Notes under the pieces: generated by a model
Databases searched by the model: none
Seen by the model: only the letters and a program-made list of their open reading frames with translations
Told to the model about the DNA's origin: nothing
Position numbers and translations under genes: made by a program
Virus record (IMG/VR): IMGVR_UViG_3300035130_000102
Coordinates: 1-40,372 of that record
Reading direction: 5' to 3' (one strand)
DNA: 40,372 nucleotides
Source of the DNA: a virus
Shown: positions 5,033-40,372 of the stretch, one piece after another
Position numbering within the stretch: the stretch's first letter is position 1
Layout of the letters: the number at the start of each line of letters is the position of its first letter

Positions 5033-5334
5033 TGCCCCGCTCGTGGCAACAGCAGTCGGTCACGGCCCCGGGTCCGCCCCCGCCGCCAGCTAATGCTGCC
5101 CTGCCGCTCGAGTCGCTTGAGAACTTCATGGACCTCCCAGGCAGCAGAAAACGAGATCCCGTCCCGGCTCAGCCGCTCGACAATCTCAGACCGCAACGGC
5201 TCACGCCGCTCCGCTATGGCCCGGAGCAGCCTCAACGTTTGCCGATTCTCCTCTTCGAGCCGCTCCTTGAGCCATGCCCGCTTTTCTGGCGTGAGGAGGC
5301 CACCGCTCGCAGCCGAATTGTCACTTTTGTCCAC
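5029..5334 (-). CDS. Winged-helix-like DNA-binding protein; candidate regulator of the divergent control region
   Basis: GTG at 5334 is preceded by GGAGG plus 5 nt. LLRAIAERREPLRSEIVERLSRDGISFSAAWEVHEVLKRLERQGSISWRRG resembles a wHTH. The tracked N-terminal extension to 5568 is Arg/Gly-rich. Confidence 0.5.
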   Translation of the reverse strand: MDKSDNSAASGGLLTPEKRAWLKERLEEENRQTLRLLRAIAERREPLRSEIVERLSRDGISFSAAWEVHEVLKRLERQGSISWRRGRTRGRDRLLLPRAGQ

Positions 5335-5900: not shown

Positions 5901-6066
5901 GGCGCCGCCGGAGGGTTTGTGCTACGACCCTGTTGGCCCCGGCGGCGCCGATTTTGGAGGGACGGAGCCCAGCGGGCCCGGCCCTTGTGGCGTTAGCGGC
6001 GGCCGGTGTGGGCGTGGTGTCGCAAGCGCTCCGGAGGCGCCGGCCGCCGCTGCTTTGGAGGGACGC

Positions 6067-20614: not shown

Positions 20615-22711
20615 TTATTGTCCTGGTGCCGTGCCCGGCATCACGGTTGCGCCGCCGGCACCGGTACGCCACGCCGCCGGCCCACTGACACCCTCGGGCA
20701 CCATGTACTCTTGCCGGCCGGTCTCCGGGTTGACACCGACACTCACCGGTCGCTCGACGTGGGCCCCCATGCGCTCCCTGAAGGCCCCCTGTAGCTGATT
20801 CTTGTAGCCGGTCATGACGCGTCCCATGTCGTAGCGCTGCCGCCCGATCGCGTCTGTGGCCTCGGGGGCGAGCATGGGAGCGATCCGCTGCATCTCGCCC
20901 TCCGTCATGCTCGCGCCGGCCACTGCGTTGATCGTGGGAACGTCGACCTGCGCCGCCGCTCGGCGGTAGGCCGCTTTGTCGTCCTCGCTCATGACGAGGT
21001 CAGAGCCTTGGTATTTCCGCAGGATGCGATCCATCGTTTCGACGTTACGCATTGCGCCGCGGAACTTTGCGGTTTCGTCCCGCAGCTCCTGGACCTTGCT
21101 GCCCGGCAAGGCGATCCCTACGCCAGGGATAACCCGCTTCGCCTCGTCCTTGCCGAGCGGCCTGTAGCCGGCGAGCCCCTGCGCCGCGAGCTGCTGCCGG
21201 GCCTGCTGCTTTCGCCGTGCTTGCCCCTGCGCCCACATTGCCGCCCGGCGCTGCTGCATGCGCTGATCGGCAGCCAGCGCCGCCCCTACGCGAATTCGCT
21301 GCTCGTTGTCGAGCTGAGCCCTCGACAGCTCTCGATCGACATGGGCGAGGTAGCGCTGGGCGTCCACTTTAGCCGTTTCGCTCCGGGCCGTCGCTGCCTT
21401 TTCTGTGAGAAATGCCTTGGCCTGATCAAGCTGCAGCATACGTTCTGTCTGGATCGCTGCCTGCTCATCGCCGAGCTGCTGACGTAGCATTCCGAGGCGA
21501 TTTTGCTTTGCTGCAGCGACATCCTTTAGCGTCGAGATGTCGGCCAGCTGAGCCTTGATGTCCCGATCGATCCGGGCGTCAATGGCTTGCTGGGCGAAGT
21601 TGGGGCCGCCGGTGAATGCAGCGCCGGCAGCTCCGAGGGCAGCGGCGAGGGCGTCCAGGACAGGGATGGCGCCGCGACGCGGGTCAACCTTTGTCGCCTT
21701 CATCTCGTCAACTGCGCGGCGGTATTCAGCATCGGCCTGCTGATAGCTCTGCTCGAAATCCTGCCGGAACTGGGCAAACTCGGCCTCTTGCAGCTTCGCC
21801 TTCTCGGCCTGCTGCGCCGCCAGCTCCCGCTGAGCATCTAGCTCCCGCTGCTCGACCACCTGCCGCTGCTGCTCAATGGTGGCCATCTTACGGCCGAACC
21901 CAAGCTCCATCTCCTGCTTCCGGGCGGCGACTCCGCGGGGGTCCGAGCGCAGCCATTCGTCGTATCGCCGGAGCAGCTCCTCCTTGTTTTTGGGATCCAT
22001 CTCGAGCTGCTCAACTGCCTCGCGATAGCCGGGCAGGTAAAAGCCCGGCTCAGGGTTGAGAGCCTTGACGTCTGCCGGCAGGTACCGGCCCGGATCTGCA
22101 GCAGGCGCTACCCCGCCACGGACACCCGCTCCGCCAGCCGCAACAGGCCTCGTACGCAGGCCGAGGCGCTGACGGATCGTCTCCTCCGGCACCCCCTGCC
22201 CACGTAGCTGCTCGACGAGGGCCGCGCCACGAGGGCCCATCATGGCCTGGGCCTGCGCTGAGGTGTCCGACTGCAGAGCCGTCTGAACGGTGGTCACCCC
22301 GGTGCGCACCGGTGCGCCGGCACCTGGGCCGCCGCCAGCGATCCGCCGGCGGGTCTCCTCGAACCGCGGATCGCCGGCGGGCACCCGCTCGCCCGTGGCC
22401 GGATCTACGACACCCCGGGCGAGCTCAGCAGTCGTCACCGGCGGCGCCACGCCGGCCGGTCGCCACATGCCAGCGCCGGCAAGCGGGTCCTCTTCGCCGA
22501 TCGGCGCCGGCTGCAGCTCCGGTGGTAGCTCGCCTGCCAGGATCTGCTCGGTGGTGAGACCCTCGACGGGCGGCGGGCCCATGGGGGCCGGCGGGGCTGC
22601 CGGCATCAGCGGCGGGCCGGCCAGCTCGCCAGTGAGAGGTGCCGGGCCGGCTCGTAGCTCCTCGGGGCTCGGTGGCAGCTCTGGGCCTGCCATGGGGTAA
22701 CCGTTAGCCAT
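20615..22711 (-). CDS. Internal virion/ejection-type protein (698 aa; gp15-position)
   Basis: Pro-rich N-terminus and Gln/Ala/Arg-rich coiled-coil middle. GGGAGG RBS 5 nt upstream of the ATG. Confidence 0.5.
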   Translation of the reverse strand: MANGYPMAGPELPPSPEELRAGPAPLTGELAGPPLMPAAPPAPMGPPPVEGLTTEQILAGELPPELQPAPIGEEDPLAGAGMWRPAGVAPPVTTAELARGVVDPATGERVPAGDPRFEETRRRIAGGGPGAGAPVRTGVTTVQTALQSDTSAQAQAMMGPRGAALVEQLRGQGVPEETIRQRLGLRTRPVAAGGAGVRGGVAPAADPGRYLPADVKALNPEPGFYLPGYREAVEQLEMDPKNKEELLRRYDEWLRSDPRGVAARKQEMELGFGRKMATIEQQRQVVEQRELDAQRELAAQQAEKAKLQEAEFAQFRQDFEQSYQQADAEYRRAVDEMKATKVDPRRGAIPVLDALAAALGAAGAAFTGGPNFAQQAIDARIDRDIKAQLADISTLKDVAAAKQNRLGMLRQQLGDEQAAIQTERMLQLDQAKAFLTEKAATARSETAKVDAQRYLAHVDRELSRAQLDNEQRIRVGAALAADQRMQQRRAAMWAQGQARRKQQARQQLAAQGLAGYRPLGKDEAKRVIPGVGIALPGSKVQELRDETAKFRGAMRNVETMDRILRKYQGSDLVMSEDDKAAYRRAAAQVDVPTINAVAGASMTEGEMQRIAPMLAPEATDAIGRQRYDMGRVMTGYKNQLQGAFRERMGAHVERPVSVGVNPETGRQEYMVPEGVSGPAAWRTGAGGATVMPGTAPGQ

Positions 22712-22853
22712 GATGGCCTCCCGCCAGCCATGATGGCCCGCGGCCCCAGCCCTGCTCGTAGTCGATGCTGCTCATGCTGCTCATGCTGCTCATGCTGCTC
22801 ATGCTGCTCATGCTGCTCATGCTGCTCATGCTGCTCATGCTGCTCATGCTCAC
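22704..22853 (-). CDS. Candidate 49-codon micro-ORF V/M-S-M-(SSM)8-SSI-DYEQGWGRGPSWLAGGHHG spanning the tandem repeat
   Basis: The GTG overlaps the upstream TGA (GTGA). The TAA overlaps the downstream ATG (ATGGCTAA). Every repeat codon (AGC AGC ATG) ends in G or C. Not in the ORF track because it is under 60 aa. Confidence 0.35.
   Translation of the reverse strand: MSMSSMSSMSSMSSMSSMSSMSSMSSMSSIDYEQGWGRGPSWLAGGHHG
22765..22851. repeat. Perfect 9-bp tandem repeat ATGCTGCTC: 9 copies plus a 6-nt partial
   Basis: Counted directly: units start at 22765, 22774, ... 22837, and the partial ATGCTC is at 22846-22851. Confidence 0.97.
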
Positions 22854-23437
22854 CCCGCGATCCTTGCCAGCCCCGCCGAGCCAGCTGACATGGCCGCCCC
22901 GATGGCCTGCGCTTTGGCCTGCTCGCGCTGCGCCTCCTCGGCCAGCTGTGTCTGCTGAGCAGCCTGCGCTTCGGCGAGCCCCCGCGCTTGCGCCGCTCCG
23001 AAAAACTGCAGGGCCTGCTGCGCCTCTGCCTGCGCCTGCTGCTGCTGTGCTAGCTGCGACTCCTGCATCATGCCCCGGGCCATGGCCTCCTCCTGGGCCC
23101 GTCTAAACGCCTGCTGGGCTATCTGCTCGCTCATCTGGCGCTGGGCCCCAAACATCGCTGCCCGCTGTGCCAGTCCTCCGCCGGCGCCGGCTACGCGTGC
23201 TTGCTGCGCTGCTCCCCCGCGGGCAAGAGCCTGCCGCGCCTGGGCAGCGCTCGCCCCGCCGGCGAGGGCCGCGTAGTAGTCCTGGACGAGCTGCTGCCGC
23301 TGCCCGAGGTAGTCGCGAGCGATCCCGTGCTGGTAGGCGGCAATCCCCGGATGGGATCCCGTCCAGGCCGGTGCCGCCGGCGTTCCGAAGGTGACGTCTG
23401 TTGATGCGCCGAAGGGATCGTAGTCAAAGAGCCCCAT
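22850..23437 (-). CDS. Ala/Gln-rich internal virion-type protein (195 aa; gp14-position)
   Basis: Low-complexity A/Q/G helical sequence. 1-nt overlap with the upstream gene. Confidence 0.5.
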   Translation of the reverse strand: MGLFDYDPFGASTDVTFGTPAAPAWTGSHPGIAAYQHGIARDYLGQRQQLVQDYYAALAGGASAAQARQALARGGAAQQARVAGAGGGLAQRAAMFGAQRQMSEQIAQQAFRRAQEEAMARGMMQESQLAQQQQAQAEAQQALQFFGAAQARGLAEAQAAQQTQLAEEAQREQAKAQAIGAAMSAGSAGLARIAG

Positions 23438-27950: not shown

Positions 27951-28673
27951 TTACGGCCCCCAGTGGCCGTAGGGCCAGAGCCCCTGCCCGTGCGTCCACC
28001 CGTCCTTGCGCGTGTCCTGGACGATCTCAGGGTTACCGGCGTCCCGGTTGGCGGCGAGGTCCGCGATCTCGGCCTCAATCATGGCTCGCTCGCGCTCGAG
28101 CCTGCGAGGATCCTGCTCGTCCTTGTCCACGAGCCCGAGGGCCACGGTGTAGTAGGCCCATTCCTCCCACCCGTTGACGCCATCGAAGGTGTCGGCATCG
28201 CCGGCCAATGGCTGAAACTGTGGGACATAGCGGACATGCAGCGTGTAGGCCCGGCGCGGGACCGGCTTGAGCACCAGCGCGTTATTTTGGATCCGGTAAT
28301 GCAGGTGTCGCAGCGACAAGACCCCGGAGAGCCAGTGCTGCGACGAAAGCCGGGCGATGTCGTTGTGTGTCCAGGCCGGCAGGTCCGCCCAGCTGTAAGT
28401 GCTGTCGTCTTGCCCGAGCACGCCGAGGAGGTGCAGCCCGAAGTCCTGCGGAAGCGCGTAGGTGTCCACATCAGCGACGGTGACGATCTCGTGCTCCTTG
28501 GCGTAGCGCTCATGCCCCCCGGCGCGCACGAGCTTGTTGTACAGCCGCCGGAGGGCACGGTTGATGCGCCGGTCCAGCTCCTCGGGCGAGATGCGATCCT
28601 GCTGCAGCTCCTCCTCATCCGCGATCTCGCGGATGGCTACGCGCATCTCCTGCAGCTGGACCGGCTGTGGCAT
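27951..28673 (-). CDS. Virion structural protein (240 aa; head-tail connector candidate)
   Basis: Position between the head and tail genes. No specific motif recognised. Confidence 0.4.
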   Translation of the reverse strand: MPQPVQLQEMRVAIREIADEEELQQDRISPEELDRRINRALRRLYNKLVRAGGHERYAKEHEIVTVADVDTYALPQDFGLHLLGVLGQDDSTYSWADLPAWTHNDIARLSSQHWLSGVLSLRHLHYRIQNNALVLKPVPRRAYTLHVRYVPQFQPLAGDADTFDGVNGWEEWAYYTVALGLVDKDEQDPRRLERERAMIEAEIADLAANRDAGNPEIVQDTRKDGWTHGQGLWPYGHWGP

Positions 28674-29249: not shown

Positions 29250-29735
29250 TCACCTCAGCTCGTAGTCGATGTCGACGGTCAGGTCGGTGATGACGACGCC
29301 GGCGGCTGCCTTGGTGACCTCGAGCACGAGCCACTCGCCCGCGTCGAGGGTGTCGTCATACTCGATCGTGAACGCCCGCGCTACCCTGGCCGCGAGGGTT
29401 CCTCCGCTGCCCGTCTGGGTGTCGGTCGCATCGATCGATGTGAGCCCGCCGGCCGCGCCGTTTTCCTTGTTGAGGTCGAGGACTGCGTAGTTTGCGGCGT
29501 CTTCGGCCACGTCGCCAGCCGCGGCGATGTACACGCTCTTGAGGCGGATGTCCTGCTCCGCCCTCATCAGCATGTAGTTGGTCTCGTCGCCGGCTGCGGC
29601 ATCCGCGGGCAGCACCAAGCGAGCTTGACGCCGCAGCGTCAGCTCCCGGTGCTTTTCGATGCCGTCGTCCCAGATGTGGGCCTCGTGTGTCGCGACCCTG
29701 TCAGCCAGGGTCCTGAAATCAGGTACATTTGCCAT
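29250..29735 (-). CDS. Hypothetical virion-module protein (161 aa; capsid decoration or cement candidate by position)
   Basis: Strong RBS AAGGAG, 9 nt after the capsid gene stop. Confidence 0.45.
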   Translation of the reverse strand: MANVPDFRTLADRVATHEAHIWDDGIEKHRELTLRRQARLVLPADAAAGDETNYMLMRAEQDIRLKSVYIAAAGDVAEDAANYAVLDLNKENGAAGGLTSIDATDTQTGSGGTLAARVARAFTIEYDDTLDAGEWLVLEVTKAAAGVVITDLTVDIDYELR

Positions 29736-40039: not shown

Positions 40040-40296
40040 GGTGCGCCACCCCCCGGCCCTAGCTCGGGCGGTAGCTTGGTGCGCCCTTGCCCGTCGCCGA
40101 GGCACCACTCGAGCAGCCTCCGGGCTTGTGCCGGAGTGGCGTGGCGGTCCCGGCCCCAGTAGGCAAATCCGGTGGGGTGGTGTCCGCCCGCCGGGACGAG
40201 CTTAGCCCACCCGAGCTGCTCGAGCGTCACCTCCGGGCCGCCACGCCACTCCGGCAGCGCCGGCTCTCTCAGCTGCTCGAGCAGCTCCCGGGCCAA
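40036..40296 (-). CDS. Hypothetical protein (86 aa); first gene of the long minus-strand operon
   Basis: The ORF start lies inside the terminal repeat (equivalent to nt 51 of the window). The upstream intergenic region is therefore nt 52-245. Confidence 0.55.
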   Translation of the reverse strand: MARELLEQLREPALPEWRGGPEVTLEQLGWAKLVPAGGHHPTGFAYWGRDRHATPAQARRLLEWCLGDGQGRTKLPPELGPGGGAP

Positions 40297-40372
40297 ATTT
40301 CGGTGCCCCTCCTCGCAGCACGGGTGCCACGTCCCCGCCGGCGACAGCCAGCCGCAATCTGAGGTGATCCAC
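40246..40372. repeat. Terminal direct repeat, right copy (identical to 1-127)
   Basis: Same 127-nt string as the window start. This implies a circular or terminally redundant 40,245-bp unit. Confidence 0.95.

Follow-up and report, generated by a model that had tools for sequence, protein, structure and literature searches.

In-frame coding minisatellites, or variable-number tandem repeats (VNTRs), arise by slipped-strand mispairing, for example in the repeat regions of bacterial surface proteins, and phase-variable contingency loci carry repeats with units of 1–7 nt that are not divisible by three and switch a reading frame on and off. The interspersed repetitive units of mycobacteria (MIRUs) have an overall unit length of about 46–101 bp. 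At senX3-regX3, MIRU VNTRs with units of 77 and 53 bp lie between the genes of an operon, contain an open reading frame (ORF) that is coupled by its stop and start codons to the downstream gene, and have a minimal polar effect (Supply et al. 1997 via PMC12548453; PMC4213456). Termination-reinitiation needs overlaps or very short distances, its efficiency is strongly distance-dependent in model systems and a spacing of ~20 nt almost abolishes coupling (PMC10666635); some short ORFs serve only to deliver ribosomes to the gene downstream (PMC12548453). Here we describe a perfect 9-bp tandem array within a micro-ORF that lies between a gene of 195 amino acids (aa) and a gene of 698 aa in the viral DNA IMGVR_UViG_3300035130_000102 of IMG/VR (positions 1 to 40,372, 40,372 bp, referred to as the window).

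We propose, with a probability of roughly 60%, that the array is a recent slippage expansion from one copy to nine, tolerated in a translated and coupled relay ORF that descends from a zinc-ribbon gene. The slot between the two large genes would originally have held a gene of 63–90 aa, encoding an IDY...GPxW motif and a zinc ribbon, from which an in-frame deletion would have taken the ribbon. The remnant would be a 23-codon ORF retaining the ancestral junctions, with its start within 2 nt of, or overlapping, the upstream stop and its stop 8 nt into the downstream gene. In a single lineage, slipped-strand expansion of AUG AGC AGC would then recently have multiplied the unit. Sequence comparison establishes the homology, the ribbon deletion, the expansion from one unit to nine and the conserved junction geometry.

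MIRUs are the functionally closest described analogue. At both kinds of locus a tandem repeat stands between co-transcribed genes, includes a coupled ORF and varies in copy number between strains. MIRUs, in contrast, are longer, mobile and dispersed, whereas the array described here has a 9-bp unit at a single locus, derives from the first three codons of a resident gene, and joined a coupling that pre-dates it. With in-frame VNTRs the array shares perfect head-to-tail copies (100% identity), a unit divisible by three, a copy number that differs between closely related genomes and a frame that is kept, but its unit contains the start codon itself, and without the repeat the ORF around it has only 23 codons. 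Like contingency loci, it places a hypermutable repeat at the 5′ end of an ORF, but the 9-nt unit cannot toggle the frame. The distances are those of relay ORFs at −4/−1 overlaps (PMC6728339, PMC10666635, PMC12548453) and lie within the range given for reinitiation (PMC10666635): the micro-ORF starts at −4 (GTGA) or +2 relative to the upstream stop, and its own stop lies at −8, no more than 8 nt from the downstream start. It differs from such relays in that coupling is here inferred from sequence, in a downstream overlap of −8 rather than −4/−1 and in the strong downstream Shine-Dalgarno sequence. The locus is an in-frame VNTR in a coupled small ORF and as such reflects a known kind of event; the initiation codon within the unit is the unusual detail.

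The array is genuine. Tandem Repeats Finder reported ATGCTGCTC (plus strand) in 9.6 copies with 100% matches and no indels (score 172, against 80 for the next-best tandem array in the window), 86 nt in total (Table 1). A two-unit probe with up to three mismatches found ten sites in the window, nine of them within the array, compared with an expectation of 0.06 sites from 100 dinucleotide-preserving shuffles. All long genes at this locus are on the minus strand, on which the sequence reads GGGG-TGA-GC-(ATGAGCAGC)x9-ATCGAC or, in codons across the junction, ATC GCG GGG TGA GC (ATG AGC AGC)x9 ATC GAC TAC. The first-pass annotation, made from the sequence alone, had reported this perfect array together with a 49-codon ORF that begins at a GTG and is joined to its neighbours at GTGA and ATGGCTAA; direct reading bore out the array as well as the limits, translation and junctions of the ORF, whose product is (V/M)S-(MSS)9-IDYEQGWGRGPSWLAGGHHG. 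Likewise, the frame of the upstream gene meets a TGA every 9 nt (GCA TGA GCA, about 10 stops altogether), and the 9-nt unit length preserves the reading frame, both as stated there. The description of the repeat as filling the intergenic gap was right in placing it within the gap and wrong as to extent, the array taking up 86 of the 138 nt between the 195-aa and 698-aa genes.

These two genes share a common reading frame, and the remaining frame of the array reads (GAG CAG CAT)n. AGC is the top serine codon in the long genes of the window (38% of Ser codons), while rare codons are used in the other array frames (GCA, 11% of Ala codons; CAT, 18% of His codons). A GGGG run (22856-22853) stands 5 nt before ATG 22847, an arrangement found again in two of the related contigs introduced below (L001 and L004). 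Judged by alignment with the relatives, the homologous start appears to be this ATG and not necessarily GTG 22853, which offers an alternative start with a −4 overlap (GTGA, 22853-22850).

Relatives of the locus were found by protein search with the 698-aa gene and consist of a few metagenomic contigs. The nearest relative, 80% identical and represented by L001, L002 and L003, shares 81–93% aa identity with the window in the 251-, 195-, 698- and 883-aa proteins and 74% in the 1056-aa protein. These are three independent assemblies, identical over the 401-nt junction (L001 and L002 are 99.98% identical across 12 kb), and each carries one unit at the position where the window carries nine. In L001 the gap reads TAG CT ATG GGC AGC ATC GAC TAC GAG CAG GGA TGG GGC CGC GGG CCG GCG TGG CTG GCA GGA GGC TAC CAT GGC TGA. 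It measures 66 nt compared to 138 nt in the window, and the difference of 72 nt corresponds to exactly eight units. The single unit, ATGGGCAGC (ATG-GGC-AGC), occupies the position of the array, and the 23-codon ORF of L001, with the product MGSIDYEQGWGRGPAWLAGGYHG, represents the window micro-ORF with a single unit.

Assemblers are known to make errors at tandem repeats, and a short-read assembly might have inflated the copy number or invented the array. The two ends of the window form an exact 127-nt direct repeat (1-127 = 40246-40372), which indicates a circular contig assembled at k=127. This k exceeds the 86-nt array, so that single k-mers and reads span the array and both flanks, and the flanks match the one-unit relative base for base. 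A second, independent assembly of this phage from another sample (JGI 3300042731, a contig of 17,683 bp) yields an identical 655-aa call of the downstream gene. Its gene call also includes a 41-aa ORF at 6-131, which ends 8 nt beyond the equivalent of ATG 22711. By coordinate transfer this contig starts at window position 22834, inside the array, and carries no fewer than 7.8 identical units, with the same tail behind them. That it stops within the array could be counted in favour of an assembly error; the break is equally compatible with mixed copy numbers, for which it gives a hint and no proof. Taken together, we regard an artefact as very improbable.

The micro-ORF joined to both neighbours, as described in the first-pass annotation, is real, and comparison with the relatives shows it to be conserved. 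An ORF that abuts or overlaps both neighbours was present in all seven lineages bearing the slot gene, with the same junction geometry, and neither stops nor non-triplet variants were found in it among the relatives (homologues in L001-3, L004, L006, L013, L014, L015/16 and L037). Its start lies between −8 and +2 nt from the upstream stop in seven of seven lineages, in the form of ATGA, TAATG, an 8-nt overlap or TAG-NN-ATG, and the ORF runs 8 nt into the downstream gene (14 nt in L004) up to its stop. The overlap at the downstream start has the form RTG-SCT-RA in six of the seven, the window included, and in all relatives a GGAGG-like (or AGGAGG) Shine-Dalgarno sequence falls within the last codons of the small ORF. 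The C-terminal G-G-(Y/H)-H-G of the window product is explained in the same way, being set by the ribosome-binding site (RBS) and the start of the next gene. Both junctions are thus ancestral and older than the repeat. The earlier idea that the repeat itself forms a doubly coupled ORF does not hold, the coupling being ancestral and present in the nearest relative with a single unit.

In five of the seven lineages the slot encodes a protein of 63–90 aa that combines an N-terminal IDY...GPxW motif with a CxxC-x10-CxxC core: L004 (76%; a 68-aa ORF), L006/L013 (MSSSIDYDYYGPLWRL...GPCRGCPYTSPSTACTWC...), L014 (MFSPAIDYDYYGPLWRL...PCRSCPYASPSTACTWC...), L015/L016 (...SPAIDYEQEWGRGPAWLRSRPEPCRSCVYSSPSTACTWC...) and L037 (...YGPLSRL...PCRSCVYPSPSTACTWC...). 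The core looks zinc-ribbon-like. No match to the family was found in Pfam or PHROG, an exhaustive profile search recovered three representatives among 1.84 billion proteins, and an AlphaFold model of the small protein was unusable (pLDDT 41). Between L013 and L014 the slot gene diverges by 0.23, 0.18 and 0.55 at codon positions 1, 2 and 3, which reads as a textbook coding signature, and at the DNA level the slot gene is better conserved than the adjoining large genes.

The window ORF occupies the same slot, between 195-like and 698-like genes on the same strand and with both junctions, as the family members P0007, P0008, P0009 and P0010 and the ORFs of L004 and L006. Its motif IDYEQGWGRGPSW is close to IDYEQEWGRGPAW of P0009, both conforming to IDY(D/E)-x-GPxW, and tblastn with P0009 against the window gave E = 2e-6 at 22844-22725. 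In alignments with the family proteins, the ORFs of the window and of L001 match the N-terminal motif, which both retain as IDYEQGWGRGPxW, and the final five to seven residues, and the CxxC-x10-CxxC core (PCRxC...SPSTACTWC) is absent from both. The window also shares the first codons ATG AGC AGC with L006 and L013; it differs from the family in lacking the core and in having eight extra Met-Ser-Ser units. By alignment, therefore, the micro-ORF is an in-frame, ribbon-deleted derivative of the family and not a full member, and the dedicated Ser/Met-rich peptide envisaged earlier gives way to a remnant of a larger small protein.

No credible second copy of the zinc ribbon was found elsewhere in the window. 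At 29549-29605 (plus strand, antisense to a 161-aa gene at 29250-29735) the window encodes CPAPPSSACSWSRRRLRHP, which resembles the second half of the ribbon (CPYASPSTACTWCRRVPVRHP in P0008). The match was obtained by tblastn with composition correction switched off (E = 5e-4), is preceded by a stop and has no first CxxC, and is probably a chance likeness in GC-rich DNA.

The origin of the unit can be traced to the beginning of the gene. In L006 and L013 the full-length gene opens with ATG AGC AGC, to which ATG GGC AGC corresponds in L001, and the array accordingly reads as a lineage-specific gain of the 72 nt, which multiplied the ancestral start codon together with two serine codons. The 5′ partial unit has replaced the ancestral TAGCY before the ATG, so that the upstream TGA stop is now supplied by array-like sequence. 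Set against a divergence of ~45% at four-fold degenerate sites between the window and L001, the perfect identity of the copies indicates that the expansion is much younger than the split of the two phages or that the copies are continually homogenised, and the copy number of such a perfect 9 x 9 array should be hypermutable. The region before IDY is the least conserved of the family (MSSS-, MFSPA-, MGS- or 30-residue extensions), and an N-terminal insertion at this place would plausibly be tolerated. The (MSS)9 tract probably has no specific function and represents a near-neutral product of slippage. Four other IMG/VR contigs contain 3–4 imperfect ATGAGCAGC units; they are unrelated and of low-GC context. 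A reading of the array as iterons or a packaging site was rejected by inference, given its place in a coupled late operon, its absence from the one-unit relative and a 9-bp period that is not a helical repeat.

The long N-terminal extension of the 80-aa small ORF of L015, which is AT-richer, contains a perfect hairpin at 5075-5095 (AAGGGGGC-AGTC-GCCCCCTT). It could represent an insertion or a stem-loop with a regulatory role.

Whether the remnant is translated was approached through its divergence. The 63-nt tail of the window differs from that of L001 at eight positions, two, one and five of which fall on codon positions 1, 2 and 3; the changes in three codons are synonymous, and the stop is kept. 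The adjacent 251-, 195- and 698-aa genes diverge at these three positions by 0.11–0.13, 0.08–0.12 and 0.36–0.38. At four-fold degenerate sites, pooled over five structural genes, divergence amounts to 0.455, and at this rate the probability of eight or fewer differences in 63 nt is 3e-8 and that of five or fewer in the 45 nt upstream of the RBS is 8e-7. The tail thus seems to evolve like constrained coding sequence in the frame of the micro-ORF, with the reservation that the numbers are small and that mosaic exchange weakens the argument for selection. Such exchange is suggested by L001 and L004, which are collinear at ~75% nucleotide identity except across the small ORF (L001 5939-5989); the slot appears to behave as an exchangeable cassette between phages.

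Several points weigh against the proposed history. The comparison of small ORFs covers only seven lineages, and L005, at about 50% identity, has no small ORF, its two large genes abutting directly. In this GC-rich DNA the tail is open in all three frames, which makes the intact ORF weak evidence. L001 (5946-5986) and the distant phage L015 (5094-5134) are 97.6% identical over 41 nt of the ORF, compared with 64–73% in their other alignable segments save one 25-nt match at 92%, and it could be recent recombination, not selection, that accounts for the low divergence of the tail. The 698-aa gene possesses a strong GGGAGG RBS of its own, and a relay is not strictly needed. Translation of the micro-ORF and its coupling are deduced from sequence. 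Moreover, exact look-up of MSS variants with 4–12 units in protein databases found none, and a homology search there with the 49-aa ORF returned nothing, the micro-ORF being absent from these collections.

From some of these points the main sober alternative can be built, according to which the zinc-ribbon gene has decayed and left the interval behind as a non-coding spacer or leader, the repeat is neutral and the conservation stems from the RBS, an RNA element or recombination. The defining ribbon has after all been lost, the Shine-Dalgarno sequence and ATG of the 698-aa gene put a constraint on the final ~20 nt, and the near-identical 41-nt segment shows that mosaic exchange occurs. An RNA feature could be represented by the pairing described below. 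On the other hand, five of the eight differences between the window and L001 are at third positions, the three altered codons mentioned above are fully synonymous and the stop is preserved. Start, GGGG spacing and both junctions have been kept after ~45% four-fold divergence, and the deletion that removed the ribbon was in frame. The array region was no more structured on folding, and if anything less so, than shuffled sequence (z = +1.4), and a search of the locus for an Rfam family, promoter or terminator found none. We consider a non-coding spacer unlikely.

The pairing, of 7–8 bp, joins GGGGUAG(C) at the stop of the 195-aa gene with (G)CUACCCC at codons 4-6 of the 698-aa gene (window 22853-22856 with 22693-22699; L001 5928-5935 with 6014-6021). 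The window, L001 and L004 all have it, with a single base pair altered in a compensatory way (G-C to A-U), and it would loop out the whole micro-ORF. It folds no better than shuffles and may be a coincidence of conserved codons.

If the micro-ORF is a translated relay, as we favour, ribosomes ending the 195-aa gene would restart on it (at −4 or +2) or start at the weak GGGG RBS, cross the array and terminate atop the start of the 698-aa gene, thereby promoting translation of the latter beyond what its own Shine-Dalgarno sequence provides. An untranslated gap of 66–138 nt would break coupling because reinitiation needs an overlap or a very short distance, whereas a translated bridge makes any number of 9-nt units transparent to it. 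The expansion would have been tolerated owing to the 9-nt unit, the stop-free frame, the preferred serine codon and the location in the variable part before IDY.

The unit number might, in contrast, itself be functional, as a tunable or contingency element in which it alters the hand-over of ribosomes from the 195-aa to the 698-aa gene, through in-frame AUGs or distance, or the activity of the peptide; in both cases the stoichiometry of virion proteins would vary heritably within the phage population. The unit includes a start codon and thereby provides a ladder of nine in-frame AUGs right after the stop, the perfection of the copies points to slippage that is recent or still going on, the array has comparatively little structure, the break of the second assembly within it is compatible with mixed alleles and coupling efficiency depends on distance in model systems (PMC10666635). 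However, the array is confined to one lineage, the nearest relative works with one unit and L005 without the small ORF, a strong Shine-Dalgarno sequence serves the downstream gene independently, the frame switching of classical contingency loci is out of reach for a 9-nt unit, and protein-database look-ups gave no allele series. This makes a tunable element distinctly unlikely. A narrower version, in which the ribbonless mini-gene is kept purely as a ribosome relay and the AUG ladder acts as a hypermutable dial on coupling and not on frame, is to our mind improbable; if true, it would imply heritable variation within the population in the ratio of two internal virion proteins.

As a last possibility, the TGA might be recoded, read-through or frameshifting fusing the 195-aa protein to (SSM)n or (HEQ)n, or the 195-aa to the 698-aa protein. 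The common frame of these two genes and the GGGG run before the stop, which could in principle slip, are the points in its favour. Yet the 195-aa frame is closed by the recurring TGAs of the array, genes of the window ordinarily end in TGA more often than in any other stop codon, the relatives terminate the 195-like protein at the identical residue with TAG, and in every lineage the small ORF begins with a start codon of its own, its relative frame being a different one in L014. There is no conserved slippery heptamer and no stimulatory structure. An (HEQ)n frame reachable by a +1 shift had been proposed at first; the frame does read GAG CAG CAT, but a slippery site is missing and the relatives lack the repeat. 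We give recoding practically no credence, and a TGA-recoded or frameshifted fusion is ruled out by the repeated TGAs, the ordinary use of TGA, the TAG of the relatives and the autonomous starts.

Should the proposed history be correct, three ordinary processes would have acted on one 150-nt slot of a phage structural operon, namely cassette-like exchange, in-frame decay to a bridging 23-codon ORF, and slippage that multiplied a start codon. More notable than the array itself would be the by-product, an unannotated and very rare family of small zinc-ribbon proteins whose gene is tightly coupled to those of two large virion-module proteins, together with the cassette-like slot. The array would serve as a ready-made metagenome strain marker for this phage, and the locus cautions that ORFs of this kind escape gene callers or are given inconsistent starts. 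No long-standing question is opened unless copy number proves to tune expression.

Table 1. Positions of the array, the micro-ORF and the adjoining genes in the window, and of the slot ORFs in related contigs.
Feature	Sequence	Position	Strand	Remarks
Perfect tandem array	window	22765..22850	−	9 full ATGAGCAGC units (Met-Ser-Ser codons), partial AGC 5′, partial AT 3′
Micro-ORF (putative)	window	22704..22853	−	49 codons from GTG 22853, or 47 from first ATG 22847
First ATG of array	window	22845..22847	−	positional homologue of the small-ORF start of the relatives
TGA stop of 195-aa gene	window	22850..22852	−	5′ edge of array; overlapped by GTG 22853-22851
Conserved non-repeat tail IDYEQGWGRGPSWLAGGHHG	window	22707..22766	−	IDY...GPxW motif fused directly to C-terminal residues
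GGGAGG Shine-Dalgarno sequence	window	22717..22722	−	5 nt before ATG of 698-aa gene, within micro-ORF (codons G-G)
ATGGCTAA	window	22704..22711	−	micro-ORF stop TAA (22706-22704) inside codons 2-3 of 698-aa gene, 8-nt overlap
Upstream 195-aa gene	window	22850..23437	−	Gln/Ala-rich, no family match; gp14-position by order only
Downstream 698-aa gene	window	20615..22711	−	Pro-rich N-terminus, long predicted helices, no family match; gp15-position by order only
Slot ORF	L004	5691-5897		
Slot ORF	L006	3454-3648		
Slot ORF	L013	5001-5192		
Slot ORF	L014	2168-2368		
Slot ORF	L015	5001-5243		
Slot ORF	L037	2459-2731		

With its direct terminal repeat, the window probably represents a complete phage genome of ~40.2 kb (67.8% GC). 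It encodes an SU10-type adaptor (27951-28673, E = 1e-13), a D5-type primase-helicase and a weak match to a P22-type portal. The adaptor is followed by a gene of ~176 aa, genes of 1056, 251 and 195 aa, the micro-ORF and genes of 698 and 883 aa, an order also found in the relatives. The source is an undescribed podovirus-like phage of ~40 kb and 68% GC, from a clade without cultured relatives. Among the cultured phages of INPHARED no match was obtained to the DNA of the locus or to the 883-aa and portal proteins, and searches of IMG/VR by protein and with three DNA motifs found no relatives. A profile scan of metagenomes for relatives gave unconfirmed hits only. A scan with the DNA motif for TTEQILAGE recovered the known contig and five unrelated hits, four of them in transporter-type genes. 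A search for prophages or hosts with the zinc-ribbon DNA motif in 185k genomes gave 20 hits, in Actinomycetota and other GC-rich genomes, every one of them a chance match out of frame.

The neighbours had been labelled virion-core-type genes in gp14 and gp15 position. The gene order agrees with this, the two genes following the SU10-type adaptor and the 1056-aa protein, and the label is a reasonable positional analogy to T7-like podoviruses, but nothing beyond. The 251-, 195-, 698- and 883-aa proteins had no match in Pfam or PHROGs, and the 698-, 883- and 1056-aa proteins none among PDB sequences. An AlphaFold model of the 698-aa protein (shallow alignment, pLDDT 58, mostly long helices) had no Foldseek match. 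As T7-like core proteins, the neighbours are backed neither by sequence (PHROG and Pfam for both, PDB for the 698-aa protein) nor by fold (Foldseek on the 698-aa model).

The public call of the 698-aa gene (P0001, 655 aa) begins at Met44. ATG 22711 is backed as the start by the conserved N-terminus (MANGYP...LPPSPEEL), by the GGGAGG sequence and by the relatives, and similar late-start calls were seen in L004, L006, L013 and L014.

In L013 (4300-5004), L014 (1474-2175) and L015 (4282-5001), the 195-like protein is ~40 aa longer than in the window, where the tail is lacking, and ends in ...SDRRLK(x)2(V/I)RRP.... This tail recalls the SDxxLK motif in the intramolecular chaperone domains of the Peptidase_S74 type, and the neighbouring 382-aa protein of L037 (651-1799) gave a faint S74 hit.

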